A DNA stretch of 64,000 nt from the IMG/VR virus record IMGVR_UViG_3300042908_001001, positions 1 through 64,000 of that record, one strand, 5' to 3'. Source of the DNA: a virus. Within the stretch, counting starts at the first letter, position 1; each line of letters starts with the position of its first letter. The notes below the pieces were generated by a model that had not been told where the DNA came from, did no database searches, and saw only the letters and a list, made by a program, of their open reading frames with translations. A program made the position numbers and the translations under genes. This document shows, piece by piece, positions 3,317 through 49,820 of this stretch.

Positions 3317-6148
3317 ATGGCACAGGCGGCGATAGGATTAGGAATATCTACAGGCTTAAGTTTGCTAGGAAATAGCCTTAAGCCTGTTTCTCGTAGTTAC
3401 AACGAGGTAAATAAATCAGATAGCCTTATCCTGCCAAAATCGGGATCGGGCTTCACTCTATCACGTATCTATGGCAAGAAAAAAATAGAATCCTGTTTTA
3501 TTTTTTGGGCAGTCGATAAAATTAATCGTCCGACAACCAGTACCCAAACTTCTGGTAGTAAAAAAAAAGGGAATCGATCATCAGTAACTACTACTACTAA
3601 TAATTATTTTTATACCTTTGCGGTGGCAGTTTGTGATGGGTCAAATAATAGCGTTTCAGAAATTAAACAGATTTATTTTAATGGGAAGATTTGGTATAAC
3701 GCAGAGGGTGAACTAGAGGGAACTGCACAAAATAATAGCTTTATTCTGTCTCAACATTTAGAAATTTATTTAGGAACCAGTGGGCAGGGGAAAAGTCCCA
3801 CCATTGAATCCTATGAAGGGAGTCGCAGAACACCTCCACTAAAGCATACTTGTTATTTGGTTTTTAAAGAAATTCCTGAATCGGTAGTCGGAACATGGCC
3901 TCCGACAATATCCGTCACAATCCAAGGATCAAAGGATAATCTATACACCACAATCAATGATGTTTGCGAATCGGCAGGATTAATAGAGTCGGTTCATTTT
4001 CACGCTGGTACGGTAGGGAATATCACAGTCACAGGAGCCGAATTTAAGCAGGACGGGGGGACTTATTCTGATTTTTTGGATGAACTACTACAGCGTCACT
4101 TTGTAATGGCTAGAATCGCAAATAATGGTAGTTATGGAGACTATAACGGAGCAATTCAATTCCTAAGACAGAATGATGAGGGGTTGACGACTCATACACT
4201 AACTGCCGACGATTTAAGGGCTAGAGAAGTCGGGTCTGGTGAAGACATAGAACCCTACAAAGAAATCTTTGAAGACGCTTTAAAATTACCGTCCGAAGTA
4301 TCAGTTACCGCAGTTGATCCTAACAATAAATTTAAAGCCATTTCGAGGTCTGTAATTAAACATGGCTTAACCCATAGGAATGTTCTAAACATTAACACCA
4401 ACCTTGCAATGACAGAGGGAATGTGTGATGAACTAGCCTATAAAAAACTCAAGCAAGCGTGGATTGAAAGGCGAGAATATGAAGAAATAACATTACTTCC
4501 CCACTGGTTAGACGCTGGTATGATCGCAGGGGATAAGCTGGTTTTGCCATTGGAATCAGGCGATAATGTGACGCTACAAATAACAGAGATTAATATCGGT
4601 GCTAATTTTCTTTTAAACATTAAAGCCAAGGCATTTGAAGAAGATTTATTTACTCAAGTTCCGACTAGAGAATTTAGCAACATTGTAACGGCTTCCACTA
4701 CGATTCAATTACCACAAACTAATTTAGTTAGTTTTACGTCATTAACTAATGCCGATGGAACTGTTGAGTATGAAAAAGATGTTGATTATTCAATCAATCT
4801 AGAAACGGGTGTAATTACCCCTATAGGAGCCGCTATTACATCGGGAAGTAGTTTAGTCGCAAACTATCAATCGGGTGTAGATACGACTACTGTAATCACG
4901 AATGATCCTACTTTAGAAACTCCAAACTATCCTGATCCTGAATTGGTTCTTTTGGATATTTATAAACCTAAATCAACAGATAGAGAAGGTTTATATATTG
5001 CGATTAAAAGCAATGGAGATTTTACGGATACGGGTATTTTTGCGAGAGAATCGGGGGGGACTTTTCAGCAAATTTCGGTTATCTCAAGCTTATCAACTGT
5101 TGGAACCATTTCAAATTCATTGCCCTTGGTGACGGGGGAAGATTTAACCAGTACATTAACGATTGTTTTAGACAATGGAACTATTGACCCTTTAAGCGAT
5201 ACTGATTACGGAAATAATGTTGAGGTATTGTTAATTGGAGATGAACAAGTCTGTATTAAAAACAAAACTTTAACGGCTCCTAATACTTACTCTTGTACGA
5301 CAATCAAGAGGGCTTTAAATGGAACTGTACCAGCTAGTCATGCGATTGGGACTAGGGTGATAATGCTTAAAGGTAATAATGACTTACCCTTGATTGAATT
5401 ACCATCAACTCAAATAGGTAAAACACTGGAATTTAAAGCGGTCGTGGTTGGCAAAACAATTAGTCAAGTTGCGACACAATATTCAATCAATTTTACTGGG
5501 AATGCTTGGGAATGTTTACCCGTTTCAAACGTCACAGCAACCAAGGATCAGGGTGGGAATATTTATATTGATTGGACAGGAAATAATAGAGGGACTGGGT
5601 TAGTATTACCAGAAAAATATGAAATAGATATTATCGATTCGGGAGTTATTAGAACACTAGAGACTTCTGTTAGTAATTGCGTTTATTCTTATACGGATCA
5701 AGTAACTGATTTTGGTAGTATTCAATCCACAATAGAGGTTATTATTTATCAGGTTTCTAGTGAAGTCGGTAGAGGTATTCCCTATGCTATTTCGCTTACT
5801 CCTAGTTTAGTTTCTATTATTCCAACTATTACGGATTTTTCTCCAAGGTCAGGATTAAATGGACAAATTACCATCTACGGAAACGGATTTACTGGATCTA
5901 CTGATGCAAGTATTAACGGTGTTTCAATCACTAGCTTTACTGTGGTTAGTGATGGGGTTATTACTGGGGATATTCCAACAGCCACGACAGGAAAAGTTAC
6001 CGTCACCAATTCAACGGGTACTGGTGAAAGTTTAACGGATTTCTTTATCACAAGTGGCTCTGTTTCTTGGGGTGAAATAGGGGGGACTGTTGGAACTAAT
6101 CCGTCACTTGAATATCAATTATTAAAAACATTTTGGATTTATTCTTAA
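3317..6148 (+). CDS. tail tip / host-specificity protein (GTA-like, J-type) with C-terminal IPT/TIG-like domain
   Basis: N-terminal RIYG...YTFAVAVC...IKQIYFNGK; GDE...RALNGT...HAIGTRV; C-terminal PTITDFSP...ITIYGNGF; 943 aa. Confidence 0.85.
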   Translation: MAQAAIGLGISTGLSLLGNSLKPVSRSYNEVNKSDSLILPKSGSGFTLSRIYGKKKIESCFIFWAVDKINRPTTSTQTSGSKKKGNRSSVTTTTNNYFYTFAVAVCDGSNNSVSEIKQIYFNGKIWYNAEGELEGTAQNNSFILSQHLEIYLGTSGQGKSPTIESYEGSRRTPPLKHTCYLVFKEIPESVVGTWPPTISVTIQGSKDNLYTTINDVCESAGLIESVHFHAGTVGNITVTGAEFKQDGGTYSDFLDELLQRHFVMARIANNGSYGDYNGAIQFLRQNDEGLTTHTLTADDLRAREVGSGEDIEPYKEIFEDALKLPSEVSVTAVDPNNKFKAISRSVIKHGLTHRNVLNINTNLAMTEGMCDELAYKKLKQAWIERREYEEITLLPHWLDAGMIAGDKLVLPLESGDNVTLQITEINIGANFLLNIKAKAFEEDLFTQVPTREFSNIVTASTTIQLPQTNLVSFTSLTNADGTVEYEKDVDYSINLETGVITPIGAAITSGSSLVANYQSGVDTTTVITNDPTLETPNYPDPELVLLDIYKPKSTDREGLYIAIKSNGDFTDTGIFARESGGTFQQISVISSLSTVGTISNSLPLVTGEDLTSTLTIVLDNGTIDPLSDTDYGNNVEVLLIGDEQVCIKNKTLTAPNTYSCTTIKRALNGTVPASHAIGTRVIMLKGNNDLPLIELPSTQIGKTLEFKAVVVGKTISQVATQYSINFTGNAWECLPVSNVTATKDQGGNIYIDWTGNNRGTGLVLPEKYEIDIIDSGVIRTLETSVSNCVYSYTDQVTDFGSIQSTIEVIIYQVSSEVGRGIPYAISLTPSLVSIIPTITDFSPRSGLNGQITIYGNGFTGSTDASINGVSITSFTVVSDGVITGDIPTATTGKVTVTNSTGTGESLTDFFITSGSVSWGEIGGTVGTNPSLEYQLLKTFWIYS

Positions 6149-6157
6149 GGAGATTTT

Positions 6158-6514
6158 ATGGCTTCAACAATTAGTGATCCGCTATTTAAGGCGGTTGTTT
6201 TAAATAGTACGCTAACAACAGAGTTATTAAAAGCCGCTACAGGTACTAGGATAAAAATCACTCATATTACTATCAGTAACGGCGCAACGGCTGGCACTAT
6301 TACGCTAAGTCGTCTTGATAGTTCAAATTCGGTAGTAGCTAGGATTTTAAACGCCGCTCCTATTTTAGGAAATGCTTCTGTTTCGGGTAGTGGTTTTCCT
6401 CAACCGTTTGAATTTACAGAGTTTTATCTAGAAGCTGGCGATGAATTAAGAGGCGGTGCGACGACTACTACAGATGCCGAAATATCAATCGATTATTACG
6501 TTATTACGCTATGA
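6158..6514 (+). CDS. small beta-rich virion/tail protein
   Basis: AGGAG RBS; directly follows the tail tip gene. Confidence 0.6.
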   Translation: MASTISDPLFKAVVLNSTLTTELLKAATGTRIKITHITISNGATAGTITLSRLDSSNSVVARILNAAPILGNASVSGSGFPQPFEFTEFYLEAGDELRGGATTTTDAEISIDYYVITL

Positions 6515-7542
6515 GTTTTCGCAATGTTATTTCTGATAAAGGTAGTAAATTTAGGACTGGATTAGATAAAATAAGTCCGTCTAATACCTCTGTTGTTATT
6601 GACAGTAATGTAGGGAATAATTCAGTTAGATTATTTAGAAGTGGGCTAGGAAAAAGTCAATCCGTAACAACGGTTGATCAGTCAATAATTGAGATTGTTC
6701 GACCCCAACTTTTTAGGAATGGATTAGGAAAATCTAGTCCTGTTGTGACAACTACAACTCAGCCAGTTATTGAAGTTGTGCGTCCTCAATTATTTAGAAC
6801 GGGATTAGGTAAAAGGGATGGGGGTGGCGCGATCGCAGATCCCTTAGAATCCCTAAAAACCAACTTAATAAGTTATTGGAATTTAGACGAATCTAGTGGT
6901 ACTAGAAACGATTCTTTTGGGACTAATCACTTAACTTTATCTGGTACGGTTGACAATAAGTTTAATGGAGCAAATTTTAACAATAGCCCTAGTAATCGAC
7001 TTGCAAAAACTAGTAATTCAGACTTACAAATAAATGGCAGTAGTTTTACTGTTTGTTGTTGGGCATGGTTGCGATCAAAAACAAGTTATAGGGGATTTAT
7101 TACAAAAGATGACATTAGTTCTGGGCGGGAATTTAACATAGCTTACATCGCGTCAGAAGGTGCAATATTAGATAAAATAGTTTTTAACGTTTTTAATTTA
7201 GCCGTAGGAACTGGCGGGGCATCTGCGATCGCGTCAACATTTGGGAGTCCTCCAACGGAACAATGGATCTTTGTTGTTGGGCAATATGATTCAGTTAATA
7301 ATTTAGCCTATATTTCTGCAAATAACGGAGCAAAAAATTCTGTCTCTACAGCAGGAATTTCGGTCGGTGCTGGTAATGCGGATTTTACGATTGGATCTTG
7401 GAGTGGTGGGGTTTTTTCTCTTACTAATGACGGAGGAGTAAAACAAGCAGGATTGTGGAAAAGACTATTAACAGACGATGAAATAACTTTGCTTTATAAC
7501 AATGGACTAGGGAGAAAGTATATAGGATCTAGCTTTGTTTAA
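6511..7542 (+). CDS. LamG/concanavalin-fold tail protein with four N-terminal FRxGLxK repeats
   Basis: LISYWNLDESSG...FTVCCW...QWIFVVGQYD...LLTDDEITLLYN. Confidence 0.8.
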   Translation: MSFRNVISDKGSKFRTGLDKISPSNTSVVIDSNVGNNSVRLFRSGLGKSQSVTTVDQSIIEIVRPQLFRNGLGKSSPVVTTTTQPVIEVVRPQLFRTGLGKRDGGGAIADPLESLKTNLISYWNLDESSGTRNDSFGTNHLTLSGTVDNKFNGANFNNSPSNRLAKTSNSDLQINGSSFTVCCWAWLRSKTSYRGFITKDDISSGREFNIAYIASEGAILDKIVFNVFNLAVGTGGASAIASTFGSPPTEQWIFVVGQYDSVNNLAYISANNGAKNSVSTAGISVGAGNADFTIGSWSGGVFSLTNDGGVKQAGLWKRLLTDDEITLLYNNGLGRKYIGSSFV

Positions 7543-46060: not shown

Positions 46061-46738
46061 TTACCCTAAAAAGCTAATAGGACTATTCGGATTTTTGCCC
46101 TTTTTAATACAGAAAACAGCGTCCGATTCCTGTCTTCCACTACACATAACAGGCTTACCATTCTTAAATTGTGGAACCCCGTCAATTTCTTTCTGGCATT
46201 TACTCATAGGAACCCCGTCTTTTAAATAGTCAATACGCCAAGGAATAATGTATTGTTCTGCGATATGACAATCTAGTTCTTTAAGCTCTTTTGACCTTCC
46301 TTGACTACTAAAAAAAGATATAGGAAGCAAAAATAATAAACGACTTTCGGGCTTATCATTTAACAGTGGTAATGAATATTTAATGCCTTTGATTGCGTCA
46401 TCAAATGGAGGATTTGTTATGATCAAATCATAACTGTGAAGTTTGATAGAACGGTCAGGAAGAAAGAAATTTGAACAAGAAAAAACAATCTTCTTTCTGA
46501 GAATATCATTGTGGAAATATTTATTAAAAAAGCAATGATACCTTTCTTGATTTACTTCATTAAAATAGAGTTCAGGAATATTTAATTGATTATCTATTAA
46601 ATGCTTAATAATTGCATCAAATAAATAACCTCTTCCTCCAAACGGCTCTAAAATATTCTTATCCGTTGGCAATACTAACTTAGCCATTAAATTAGCTTCT
46701 CTTGGCGGAGTTTCATAGTCGCTTTTGTTCCAATCCAT
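46061..46738 (-). CDS. small amino-methyltransferase (N6-adenine type)
   Basis: YETP, ILEPFGGRG, ITNPPF. Confidence 0.8.
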   Translation of the reverse strand: MDWNKSDYETPPREANLMAKLVLPTDKNILEPFGGRGYLFDAIIKHLIDNQLNIPELYFNEVNQERYHCFFNKYFHNDILRKKIVFSCSNFFLPDRSIKLHSYDLIITNPPFDDAIKGIKYSLPLLNDKPESRLLFLLPISFFSSQGRSKELKELDCHIAEQYIIPWRIDYLKDGVPMSKCQKEIDGVPQFKNGKPVMCSGRQESDAVFCIKKGKNPNSPISFLG

Positions 46739-46802: not shown

Positions 46803-47993
46803 TTAAAACAAATTAAGTTGACCTGATACATTAAAGCTAATCGCCTTTTGTTGCTTCCGAATTAATAACAACTCAGTGCGTTTAGGTCGTGTTTTAGTTT
46901 TGGAGTTGCGAGTAATACCCGCGCTACTGGCTACGGTTTCTTTATAGTGGCGATCCCAATTTTCTTCAGGATAAAGCTCATCTAGCAAGTCGTTAGGATA
47001 ATAGGAAACAATCGCACCCGCGCATTCTACTTCGTTCAATGTTTTAGCCAGTCGATAGTGCATTTCTAGGGTATCATCCTTTGATTGCTTGGCATTGTAC
47101 GAATAATATTTTTCGCAGTTTAGGTACGGGGGATCTGCGTAAAACAAGGTTTCAGGAGTTGCCCAACGCTCGATTACTTTAATGGCATCGTCGCACTCTA
47201 AATAGACTTTTTTAAGGTCGTTTAGGTTTTCTTGCAAGTGTGGGGATGCTGTCAGGATTCGGGAGGGAACGGAGTTATGTACCAATGTTGGGCAAGCGTC
47301 TCCGCCATTGTCATTGCTTGGGATTGTATGCCGATCAGTTCTCCATCCATCCGATCCCCTAAATGACTGCCAATTATCAACCAAATACCGTCTAACTCGT
47401 TCAATCCGAAAATCAACATCAGGCTCTACGAATTGCCTACCCACAGCATTCAGGCAAGCATAGGGATTAATCGCCTCCGATTCCCCTAAATGCGGCGCGG
47501 CGGTTAGGATTCGGGATGGGAGATTGGCAAATCCATCTGGTGATTGTAATGCCCCGATTTCTTCCCCCGTCCTAAATGCCCACCCCTTTGATGGTTCTCC
47601 TCCCATAAATGTCTGAGTGTGACCTACTAAATACTGCCTAGCATCTTCTAAGCGATCGCCGCTTCCCCTTGATTGTGAATCCTTATGTTCTGCCCGACTG
47701 TAGGGAGTGAAATAGACAGAATAGGCTAACAATTCAGGATAATCGCGAACCATTTTATAGAGATTCATTATCTCTCTGTCAGCATCATTCAGAACCGCCC
47801 GAAAATGACGACCCCGCGCTTTAACCTGTTCTGGTATCCCTTCATTTAAAAGGTAAAAATACGTCGCCGCGCTTCCACAAAACGGTTCACAATAAATGCT
47901 GAAATTATGCTCTTTAATAAATTGCAAAATCCAAGGGGCTAATCTTGCCTTACCGCCCACCCGTCCGATCACTGGTTTGATTTTAGTTTTCAT
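46803..47993 (-). CDS. Dam-family DNA adenine methyltransferase with duplicated recognition region
   Basis: GGKARLA, YCEPFCGS, LND, YADPPY, TELL; C-terminal QLNLF. Confidence 0.9.
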   Translation of the reverse strand: MKTKIKPVIGRVGGKARLAPWILQFIKEHNFSIYCEPFCGSAATYFYLLNEGIPEQVKARGRHFRAVLNDADREIMNLYKMVRDYPELLAYSVYFTPYSRAEHKDSQSRGSGDRLEDARQYLVGHTQTFMGGEPSKGWAFRTGEEIGALQSPDGFANLPSRILTAAPHLGESEAINPYACLNAVGRQFVEPDVDFRIERVRRYLVDNWQSFRGSDGWRTDRHTIPSNDNGGDACPTLVHNSVPSRILTASPHLQENLNDLKKVYLECDDAIKVIERWATPETLFYADPPYLNCEKYYSYNAKQSKDDTLEMHYRLAKTLNEVECAGAIVSYYPNDLLDELYPEENWDRHYKETVASSAGITRNSKTKTRPKRTELLLIRKQQKAISFNVSGQLNLF

Positions 47994-48032: not shown

Positions 48033-49082
48033 TTAAGTGAATGTGAGGGATAGCGTCATTTGAGTTGGTAAAGCCCCGTGTTTTTTAGTGTAAAGCTTTT
48101 CGGCTTTTGTGCGATAAGGTTCATCTAGTTTTTTTAGCCAATCAGAGAAAGTTGATTTACTTTTTCTAACATTGCAGGAATAACAACAAATCACAACATT
48201 GCTTTCAGAGTGCAATCCCCCTCTTGACAAGGGAATTAGATGATCTAGGGTTTTTAGTCTCCCCCTATCGTGTGCCTTATCAGCCATTTTTATCCCACAG
48301 TAAACACACAGGCTTGTCTCACAAAAAAGCTTTGTAATAACTTCTGGAGTGAGAGAGCCATCGCTCTGACTATTTATTCTCTCACGTCTTTTCCCTTGAT
48401 TGCTATTAACTTCTTCCCTGTGAGTATGACGATAAATCCTTGCGTATTCAACGATCTTTTCTTTATTGTTTTTTCTGTACTCCTGATTATATTTATTTAT
48501 TGTTTCTTTATTCCCATAGTAATACTCTTTGCTTTTTTGGTTAAGAGCTTCTTTATTTCTTACATGATATTCTTTACTTTTTGCCAGCATTTGCTCTCTA
48601 TTCCTATAATGATGATTAAGAGAGGATTGTCTTCTTTTTTCTTTGTTTTCCTCATAGTCCACTTTGCGCTTTTCTGTCAAAACGGATTTATTCTTTTCGC
48701 AGTACTCTTTTCTTTTTTGTGCTAGAGACTCTTTATTTGCTTCACAATATCTCTTGTGAGACTCCGCATTTCTTTCTTTGTTGACTTCATTGTATTTTCT
48801 TTTTCGTTCTTTTATGTTTTCTTTGTTTTTTTCGTAATACTCTTTTCTTTTTTCTGCCAATACTTCTTTGTTGTTTTCGTAATACTCTTTTTTCTTTTGA
48901 CAAACTTTTTCTTTGTTGTTTTCTTTATACCTCCGATGAGACTCTTTTTCTTTTTCTTTATTCTTTTTATAATACTCTTTTCTTTTTTCCTTATTCTTTT
49001 CCCTGTATAGCTTGTCTGATAGTCGTTTTGCTTCTTTTCTTTTTTCTATCTTATCAATGTCGTTTTGTGCTAGAATATCCAT
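48033..49082 (-). CDS. HNH endonuclease with a long charged helical-repeat N-terminus
   Basis: ~15-aa YYExNKE repeats; CVYCG...TLDHLIPLSRGGLH...CYSCN..K. Confidence 0.9.
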   Translation of the reverse strand: MDILAQNDIDKIEKRKEAKRLSDKLYREKNKEKRKEYYKKNKEKEKESHRRYKENNKEKVCQKKKEYYENNKEVLAEKRKEYYEKNKENIKERKRKYNEVNKERNAESHKRYCEANKESLAQKRKEYCEKNKSVLTEKRKVDYEENKEKRRQSSLNHHYRNREQMLAKSKEYHVRNKEALNQKSKEYYYGNKETINKYNQEYRKNNKEKIVEYARIYRHTHREEVNSNQGKRRERINSQSDGSLTPEVITKLFCETSLCVYCGIKMADKAHDRGRLKTLDHLIPLSRGGLHSESNVVICCYSCNVRKSKSTFSDWLKKLDEPYRTKAEKLYTKKHGALPTQMTLSLTFT

Positions 49083-49190: not shown

Positions 49191-49820
49191 TTATTGGTAA
49201 AAAGCTTCCCAATCTTCTTTTGTGGCAAATTTGCGGTCATATTTTTGATTGTCTAAAATTAGGTGGTATTCATGCCACTCAGCCGTATCATCTCCAATCC
49301 ATTGAACTTGTTTGGAATGAGTGCGTAAAACAGGATAATCATCTATTAATTGGTTAGACTTTTCGAGATAACTAAACCCGTCATCGTCTTTTTCCCAGTG
49401 CCATTTCTTCCCACCAGTCCATTCAATCCCTAATGACTGAATGAAGGGCTTTAAAATAGCGTTACCATGATTCATTATCTGTTCAAAATTTTGATAACTA
49501 TACCCATTTTTATTGATGAGATTAATCAATCTTCCATTATGAATAAAGTTGTGGCAGGGATGACATAATGCACAAGTGCCAACGTATTCGACTCTACCAG
49601 TTGAATAGTTTATGTTATAGGACTCATGGGCTTCTAACCAACTTCTCATTTTTGCTTTGGACTTATGAACACCACAAGCCCAGCAATGATCATTAAATTT
49701 AGCTTTGCATTCTTTTTTGGTTTGTTTCCACCACTTATTCCCCTTAATTGTCCGAGGGTTTAAGGTATGCAATGGCTTGGGAATATTTGGATGACAAAGG
49801 AGGATAGGGAAGGTTTTCAT
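49191..49820 (-). CDS. HNH-like protein
   Basis: CWACG...LEAHE...LCHPCHNFIH.G. Confidence 0.7.
   Translation of the reverse strand: MKTFPILLCHPNIPKPLHTLNPRTIKGNKWWKQTKKECKAKFNDHCWACGVHKSKAKMRSWLEAHESYNINYSTGRVEYVGTCALCHPCHNFIHNGRLINLINKNGYSYQNFEQIMNHGNAILKPFIQSLGIEWTGGKKWHWEKDDDGFSYLEKSNQLIDDYPVLRTHSKQVQWIGDDTAEWHEYHLILDNQKYDRKFATKEDWEAFYQ

Follow-up and report, generated by a model that had tools for sequence, protein, structure and literature searches.

The locus described here raises the question of whether one catalytic domain of a phage DNA methylase may serve two target-recognition modules of different specificity, or whether the second copy of the recognition segment has another meaning. 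The window analysed is a DNA stretch of 64,000 nucleotides, corresponding to positions 1 to 64,000 of the IMG/VR virus record IMGVR_UViG_3300042908_001001. The full record (G000) has a length of 76.5 kb (76,533 bp) and is estimated to be 88% complete. The genes around the methylase encode a major capsid protein, a cement protein, a prohead protease, a portal protein, a baseplate hub protein and a ribonucleotide reductase.

The methylase gene is complete (46803..47993, minus strand) and its ORF encodes a D12-class N6-adenine DNA methylase of 396 aa, designated P0001, with a Pfam PF02086 score of 64.5 bits against a cut-off of 22. The Pfam profile matches only the two ends of the protein, with residues 12-90 corresponding to profile positions 2-70 and residues 253-346 to profile positions 148-244, and the central recognition part is unmatched, occupying approximately 160 residues where the profile expects approximately 77. 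The motifs are arranged in the order SAM-binding motif F38-x-G40-S41-A-A (aa 38-43), recognition region, and D287-P-P-Y290. The SAM-binding N-terminal half (aa 1-110; 47664..47993, minus strand) corresponds to profile positions 2-70 and contains G13-G-K15 and motif I (F38-x-G-S-A-A; 47865-47882, minus strand). The catalytic half (aa 261-396; 46806..47213, minus strand) corresponds to profile positions 148-244 and contains the DPPY motif (aa 287-290; 47124-47135, minus strand), in which D287, P289 and Y290 are invariant. Both the SAM-binding motif and DPPY are intact in the protein and invariant across 81 homologues, and G13-G-K15 is likewise invariant in them. A sequence search of the PDB aligned the terminal halves only and not the recognition region. 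The GC content of the module region (47214-47663) is 0.43-0.52, that of the catalytic halves 0.41-0.42 and that of the genome 0.38. The initial annotation had assigned the enzyme to the Dam family, and the PF02086 score upholds this for the D12/Dam class in the broad sense. A GATC-Dam orthologue is ruled out, as the NCBIfam TIGR00571 (dam) score is 62.3 bits and lies below the cut-off of 114.85.

The initial annotation had also described, at 47229-47654, a block that occurs twice between the SAM-binding motif and DPPY and has conserved ends and differing middles, and this interval is exactly residues 114-255 of the minus-strand ORF at 46803-47993. Comparison of residues 101-185 with residues 186-280 using BLASTP confirmed the repeat, pairing residues 114-172 with 196-256 at 27 identical positions in 66 columns (41%) and an E value of 8e-10 in this small search space. 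The pattern of ends and middles is true inside the protein and is stronger across the 81 two-module homologues, where identity to the query is 0.80-0.96 in the frames and only 0.11-0.38 in the cores (approximately aa 124-158 and 210-242). Each module is made up of a conserved N-frame (consensus approximately RRYLVDGWQS), a variable core of 29-48 residues, and a conserved C-frame (approximately LPxRILTAxPHL), and the comparison establishes this architecture. Module 1 (aa 114-172; 47478..47654, minus strand), delimited by the internal repeat and a module HMM, consists of an N-frame helix, a hypervariable core (aa 124-158; 47520..47624, minus strand; 0.11-0.38 identity to close homologues) and a C-frame helix. 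It is followed by a conserved inter-module linker (aa 173-195; 47409..47477, minus strand) that is 0.74-0.90 identical in close relatives. Module 2 (aa 196-256; 47226..47408, minus strand) was delimited in the same way, and its hypervariable core (aa 210-242; 47268..47366, minus strand) was defined by identity to homologues and by its nearest core matches.

Several origins for the repeat and its variability were ruled out. The two copies are just 41% identical, which excludes a recent tandem duplication, and approximately 90 two-module sequences, obtained independently of one another from JGI, ENA, Logan and NCBI, have the same layout, which excludes an assembly artefact. A diversity-generating retroelement was rejected because the cores are distinguished by insertions, deletions and length (29-48 aa) and not by substitutions specific to adenines, and because a template copy is absent.

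The suggestion that the repeated block lies where Dam enzymes carry their recognition hairpin was supported by profile alignment. One-module relatives align with EcoDam using hhalign collinearly over the whole length, with a probability of 93% and an E value of 3.5e-7. In this alignment the N-frame helix pairs with EcoDam residues approximately 103-119, and Y119 faces the aromatic residue that follows WQS. The core corresponds to residues 119-140, which include the hairpin and the loop after it, and the C-frame helix pairs with residues approximately 141-153. Local confidence inside the core is low. The recognition loop of the EcoDam hairpin bears the base-contacting residues Y119, N120, L122, R124 and P134 (PMC4417163), and the location of the module at this segment is taken as established.

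Structure prediction, which had been proposed as a check, was informative for one-module proteins and not for the two-module protein. The model of the one-module relative P0034, based on 136 aligned sequences, has a pLDDT of 87.7 and a pTM of 0.87, with only the core uncertain. It superimposes on EcoDam with a Z-score of 21.8 and an rmsd of 2.1 Å over 221 of 246 residues, on DpnM with a Z-score of 20.8, and on T4 Dam with a Z-score of approximately 18, and generic Rossmann methylases reach at most 12.5. The one-module relative is predicted on this basis to have a Dam-type fold. In the AF2 model of the window protein the SAM-binding half is confident, and overall only the catalytic core is. Both modules have pLDDT values below 50, so the model gives no information on how they pack and leaves the geometry at the single catalytic pocket unresolved.

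Relatives were obtained from a search of 5.8 billion proteins, which returned 354 sequences, and the best 120 of the 354 were examined with the module HMM. Module copies in homologues, the counting of which had been recommended together with the initial annotation, were found to number one, two or three. Within the best 120, proteins with one module are approximately 301-323 aa long and those with two modules approximately 375-432 aa, and three modules are present in five proteins of 432-505 aa (P0016, P0017, P0038, P0050 and P0064). Neither long fusions nor proteins with four or more modules were found in the clade. The linkers between the three modules of P0064 (432 aa, metagenomic) are approximately 4 residues long, compared with approximately 23 for the conserved linker of the window protein, so the repeat unit does not require the longer linker.

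The multi-module forms are limited to a narrow clade, as judged from a one-module profile HMM searched against 1.84 billion representative proteins. Outside the clade, 120 of 144 ordinary D12 methylases (approximately 275 aa) gave exactly one match to the module HMM, which indicates that the module is the normal recognition segment of the class and has been multiplied only in this clade. The two-module form was absent from 50,697 deposited phage genomes, where all matches were below 60% identity and those with full coverage span 738-795 nt, equivalent to one module, and no nucleotide match to the methylase region was found among the deposited phage genomes. In the GTDB species genomes only two MAG contigs matched, both with phage genes.

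The observed hypervariability is concentrated in the cores. In 27 relatives that are 65-82% identical overall to the window protein, the scaffold blocks are 0.8-0.99 identical and the core blocks 0.11-0.38 identical to the query; where the scaffold stands at approximately 90%, the cores reach only 10-25%. Grouping at 60% identity placed the cores of 222 modules into 157 types, comprising 122 singletons and 35 recurrent types, with 16 of the 35 found in last as well as in non-last position. Among the 91 two-module proteins there are 89 different core combinations, and 29 types are found with more than one partner type. Median core identity is 0.22 within one protein and 0.21 between random pairs, which gives no sign of redundancy. 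None of the 222 modules compared has a core close to that of module 1 in the window, the nearest being 34% identical. The core type of module 2 is found elsewhere as a first, third or only module, and its nearest matches are module 1 of P0073, module 3 of P0064, module 1 of P0041 and the single module of P0067.

Cores are not bound to a position. A total of 142 core pairs reach 55% identity, and in 61 of them the two members occupy different positions or lie in the same protein. The cores of module 1 of 3 in P0016 and module 2 of 2 in P0037 are 97% identical, and comparable shifts were seen between module 2 of P0069 and module 1 of P0075 (96%) and between module 1 of P0044 and module 2 of P0075 and P0076 (93%). 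P0007 and P0012 likewise have one core in common at differing positions. Catalytic domains that are only 66-78% identical carry cores that are 93-100% identical; the cores are better conserved than the catalytic domains, a reversal of the usual ranking which indicates horizontal cassette exchange. Seven genuine one-module enzymes, P0067, P0074 and P0081 among them, have a core type (at least 60% identity) in common with modules of multi-module enzymes, and the same types are seen at the first, middle or last position as well as alone. In a one-module enzyme the core would have to specify the whole target alone, and the reuse of the same types at any position supports the autonomy of the modules. 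The proposal that the cassettes are swappable is strongly supported by these comparisons, in which copy number ranges from one to three and hypervariable, position-free cores are common to diverged backbones. The relatives are metagenomic, and assemblers may switch strains inside nucleotide-conserved frames and inflate the count of combinations, an effect that cannot account for the changes in core position or the differences in copy number.

Exchange was also examined at the nucleotide level, by comparing codons at conserved residues between the window and the related locus L016. Identical codons were used at 80 of 99 such residues in the frames (81%) and at 67 of 167 in the catalytic halves (40%), where codon identity expected by chance is 0.37 (Fisher p = 8e-11 for frames versus catalytic halves), and the nucleotide identity of the inter-module linker to L016 is 0.89-0.98. 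Judged from codon identity, sharing or homogenisation of the frames in this pair is recent, whereas synonymous sites in the catalytic halves have reached saturation and the cores are unrelated, a pattern that repeated crossovers in the frames would produce. The codon-level signal rests on one close pair, and in six pairs of greater divergence it is weak or missing. Breakpoint mapping is confined to the same close pair, since the metagenome DNA scan gave a single locus.

Incomplete or additional copies were observed at three related loci. L005 has an extra complete module (N-frame, core and C-frame) at 6942-7115, within an ORF at 6774-7205 (plus strand), immediately after a one-module gene at 5965-6933. 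Its core is of the type common to module 1 of P0044 and module 2 of P0075 and P0076, and the module is in another frame than the gene. Behind it comes a degenerate stretch similar to the beginning of the catalytic half. The extra module may be a spare cassette, a small ORF in its own right or the footprint of a recombination event. In the viral contigs L006 (4710-4918) and L009 (902-1208) the gene is cut down to its first 30-35 or so and last 34 or so residues, joined almost directly, with a partial module between the two remnants in L009. These remnants are deletion scars and show that gain and loss affect the methylase as a whole. A six-frame scan of the whole 76.5-kb record with the module HMM for silent donor cassettes found only the two in-gene modules.

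The gene directly downstream of the methylase (46061..46738, minus strand) encodes a small second adenine methylase of 225 aa, of gamma class with an NPPF motif, identified by a weak match to Pfam PF02384 and by PHROG 799, which has no counterpart beside the homologues. Two HNH-type nucleases are encoded just upstream (48033-49082 and 49191-49820, both minus strand). The first, an HNH endonuclease by Pfam HNH and PHROGs (48033..49082), has an N-terminal region of approximately 200 aa made up of lysine-, glutamate- and asparagine-rich repeats of approximately 12 residues each before the HNH domain, and L011 has a fragment similar to it. That this endonuclease promotes local recombination is possible and remains speculative. 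No restriction enzyme partner was recognised, the neighbours being the second small methylase and the HNH homing-type nucleases. The related loci are viral or MAG contigs that have other phage genes in common with the window and do not have the methylase neighbours in common.

Where the sources of homologues are named they are cyanobacteria (Prochlorotrichaceae and Allocoleopsis), and the cyanobacterial HIP1 octamer (GCGATCGC) occurs 47 times in the phage record. Restriction palindromes are depleted in the record, with CCGG present once against 128 expected and GGCC 28 times against 131. ATGCAT, TTCGAA and GGTACC are each absent against 10-11 expected, with 11 for ATGCAT, and GATC was observed 271 times against 398 expected. 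The extreme avoidance of sites and the 47 HIP1 copies point to a cyanobacterial host rich in restriction-modification (R-M) systems. Bloom-forming cyanobacteria are reported to have exceptionally many R-M systems (PMC8262939).

The explanation considered most probable, with a fair measure of doubt remaining, is that the enzyme is an orphan, multispecific anti-restriction D12 methylase with autonomous modules, in which recombination within the conserved frames swaps one recognition cassette for another. A single recognition segment (frame helix, hairpin/loop core, frame helix) would have been multiplied in tandem, and each module would act as an autonomous target-recognition unit served by the one catalytic domain. 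The two-module enzyme would methylate two different motifs and its relatives one or three, and the methylation would protect the phage DNA from several restriction systems of the cyanobacterial host. New specificities would arise as phages trade variable cores with one another through homologous recombination within the conserved frames. That the cores set DNA specificity, that the modules act independently and that the role is anti-restriction are inferred, as there are no methylation data. Multispecificity, which the initial annotation had put forward, is likewise the best-fitting inference, with comparative support only. Module autonomy is supported most strongly by the finding that one and the same core type can serve a one-module enzyme by itself and turn up in any position in other proteins. 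Against multispecificity, it is unexplained how two modules could each reach DNA beside one catalytic pocket.

The last difficulty would be eased if the modules stacked side by side as helical hairpins, with neighbouring parts of a single longer or bipartite target read by their loops. Each added module would then lengthen the composite site, from one module to two and three, and would not bring a separate specificity. One composite site is easier to square with a single catalytic pocket, the predicted helix, loop, helix shape of each module is able to stack, and the short linkers of P0064 fit a rigid array better than units that dock alternately. This arrangement is nevertheless held to be doubtful, because the core types are not position-bound and also occur alone in one-module enzymes, which would be unexpected if the module beside the catalytic domain had a special role around the flipped adenine, and because longer sites would give less protection per enzyme than several short ones.

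Somewhat less credible again, and regarded as unlikely, is a programmable array in which each loop reads a few base pairs and one to three modules make up targets of graded length, or a cassette-exchange system in which the nucleotide-conserved frames are dedicated recombination arms. In the latter form, possibly aided by the adjacent HNH nucleases, a phage population would re-tool its methylase against new restriction enzymes. If either were true, a recognition code for Dam-class enzymes could be read from the approximately 157 core types found in nature.

It is also conceivable, with little to recommend it, that a single module works at any one time, or that just one ever works, and that the other is an inert spare retained as raw material for recombination or as a structural spacer, for which the pseudo-TRDs of the Bacillus phage C5 methylases are a parallel. 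Non-functional copies do exist, as the out-of-frame orphan module downstream of the one-module gene in L005 indicates, and AF2 places neither module of the window protein. Both modules have strongly conserved frames throughout the 81 two-module proteins, no stops or decayed frames were seen in approximately 220 modules, and the genome of the window has no silent cassettes, all of which count against a dispensable copy. Diversification unrelated to specificity, with the loops escaping a host inhibitor or defence sensor and methylation specificity relaxed or constant, has in its favour the extreme number of core types (157 in 222 modules), typical of arms-race surfaces, and is very improbable because the variable segment maps to the base-contact element of EcoDam and because the tandem multiplication and the retention of unlike cores in one protein would be left unexplained.

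The preferred reading, of a multispecific enzyme with exchangeable modules, can be set against several known systems. In the fused D12 methylases of the M.FokI/M.LlaI type the whole methylase is duplicated and there are two catalytic domains. These are likewise D12 adenine methylases with more than one target sequence or strand per polypeptide, whereas P0001 duplicates the recognition segment alone and has one DPPY. Type I HsdS is a separate specificity subunit in which two TRDs read the halves of one bipartite site, and Type III Mod proteins have one TRD each. The clade resembles both in having conserved frames, variable cassettes that are recombined, mosaic alleles and, by inference, many specificities. 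It differs from these components of bacterial R-M systems in that the cassettes, numbering one to three, lie in a monomeric-type, Type II-like phage orphan methylase.

EcoDam, T4 Dam and DpnM are solved D12-class GATC methylases with a single recognition hairpin and fixed GATC specificity. P0001 has the Pfam family, the order of motifs and the place of the recognition segment in common with them, and also the fold, as modelled for the one-module relative (Z-scores of 18-22). It differs in that the segment is doubled, the cores are hypervariable and the NCBIfam dam score is below the cut-off. No description of tandem recognition modules in, or of a multispecific form of, a Dam-class enzyme was found in the searchable literature. 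The clade provides many natural recognition cassettes that can be exchanged on a scaffold that hardly varies, and is ideally suited for understanding how Dam-type hairpins read DNA, for engineering the specificity of adenine methylases, and for inferring phage-host restriction pressure from metagenomes.

The closest comparison is with the multispecific cytosine-C5 methylases of Bacillus phages (M.SPRI, M.Phi3TI, M.Rho11sI and M.H2I), reportedly characterised by the Trautner laboratory. These are orphan enzymes in which one scaffold carries tandem target-recognising domains in a variable region, presumably protecting against multiple restriction enzymes, and the independence of their modules has been shown biochemically. 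P0001 is phage-encoded and has tandem recognition domains in one catalytic scaffold, and it is like the Bacillus phage enzymes in being an orphan with conserved frames, variable cores and a varying number of domains. The clade also shows the recombination-shuffled TRD trait, with variable cassettes between conserved frames in a mosaic distribution. Cytosine-C5 chemistry and fold are lacking, as P0001 has DPPY and belongs to PF02086, and it is no member of the Bacillus phage C5 family, although it is inferred to operate in the same manner. It is an N6-adenine methylase of the alpha-type D12 group with DPPY, whereas the C5 enzymes have a PC motif. Its recognition element is an unrelated, Dam-type helix/hairpin, its hosts are cyanobacteria, its core diversity is far larger, and the independence of its modules is inferred only. 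By analogy, P0001 is probably, though by no means securely, the N6-adenine, Dam-class counterpart of these enzymes. To our knowledge, multispecific methylases with tandem recognition domains are a textbook curiosity that has so far been confined to the Bacillus phage C5 enzymes. If the preferred reading is true, the same logic has evolved independently in the Dam class, in phages whose cyanobacterial hosts are rich in restriction systems, and would represent a general viral answer to multiple R-M barriers.
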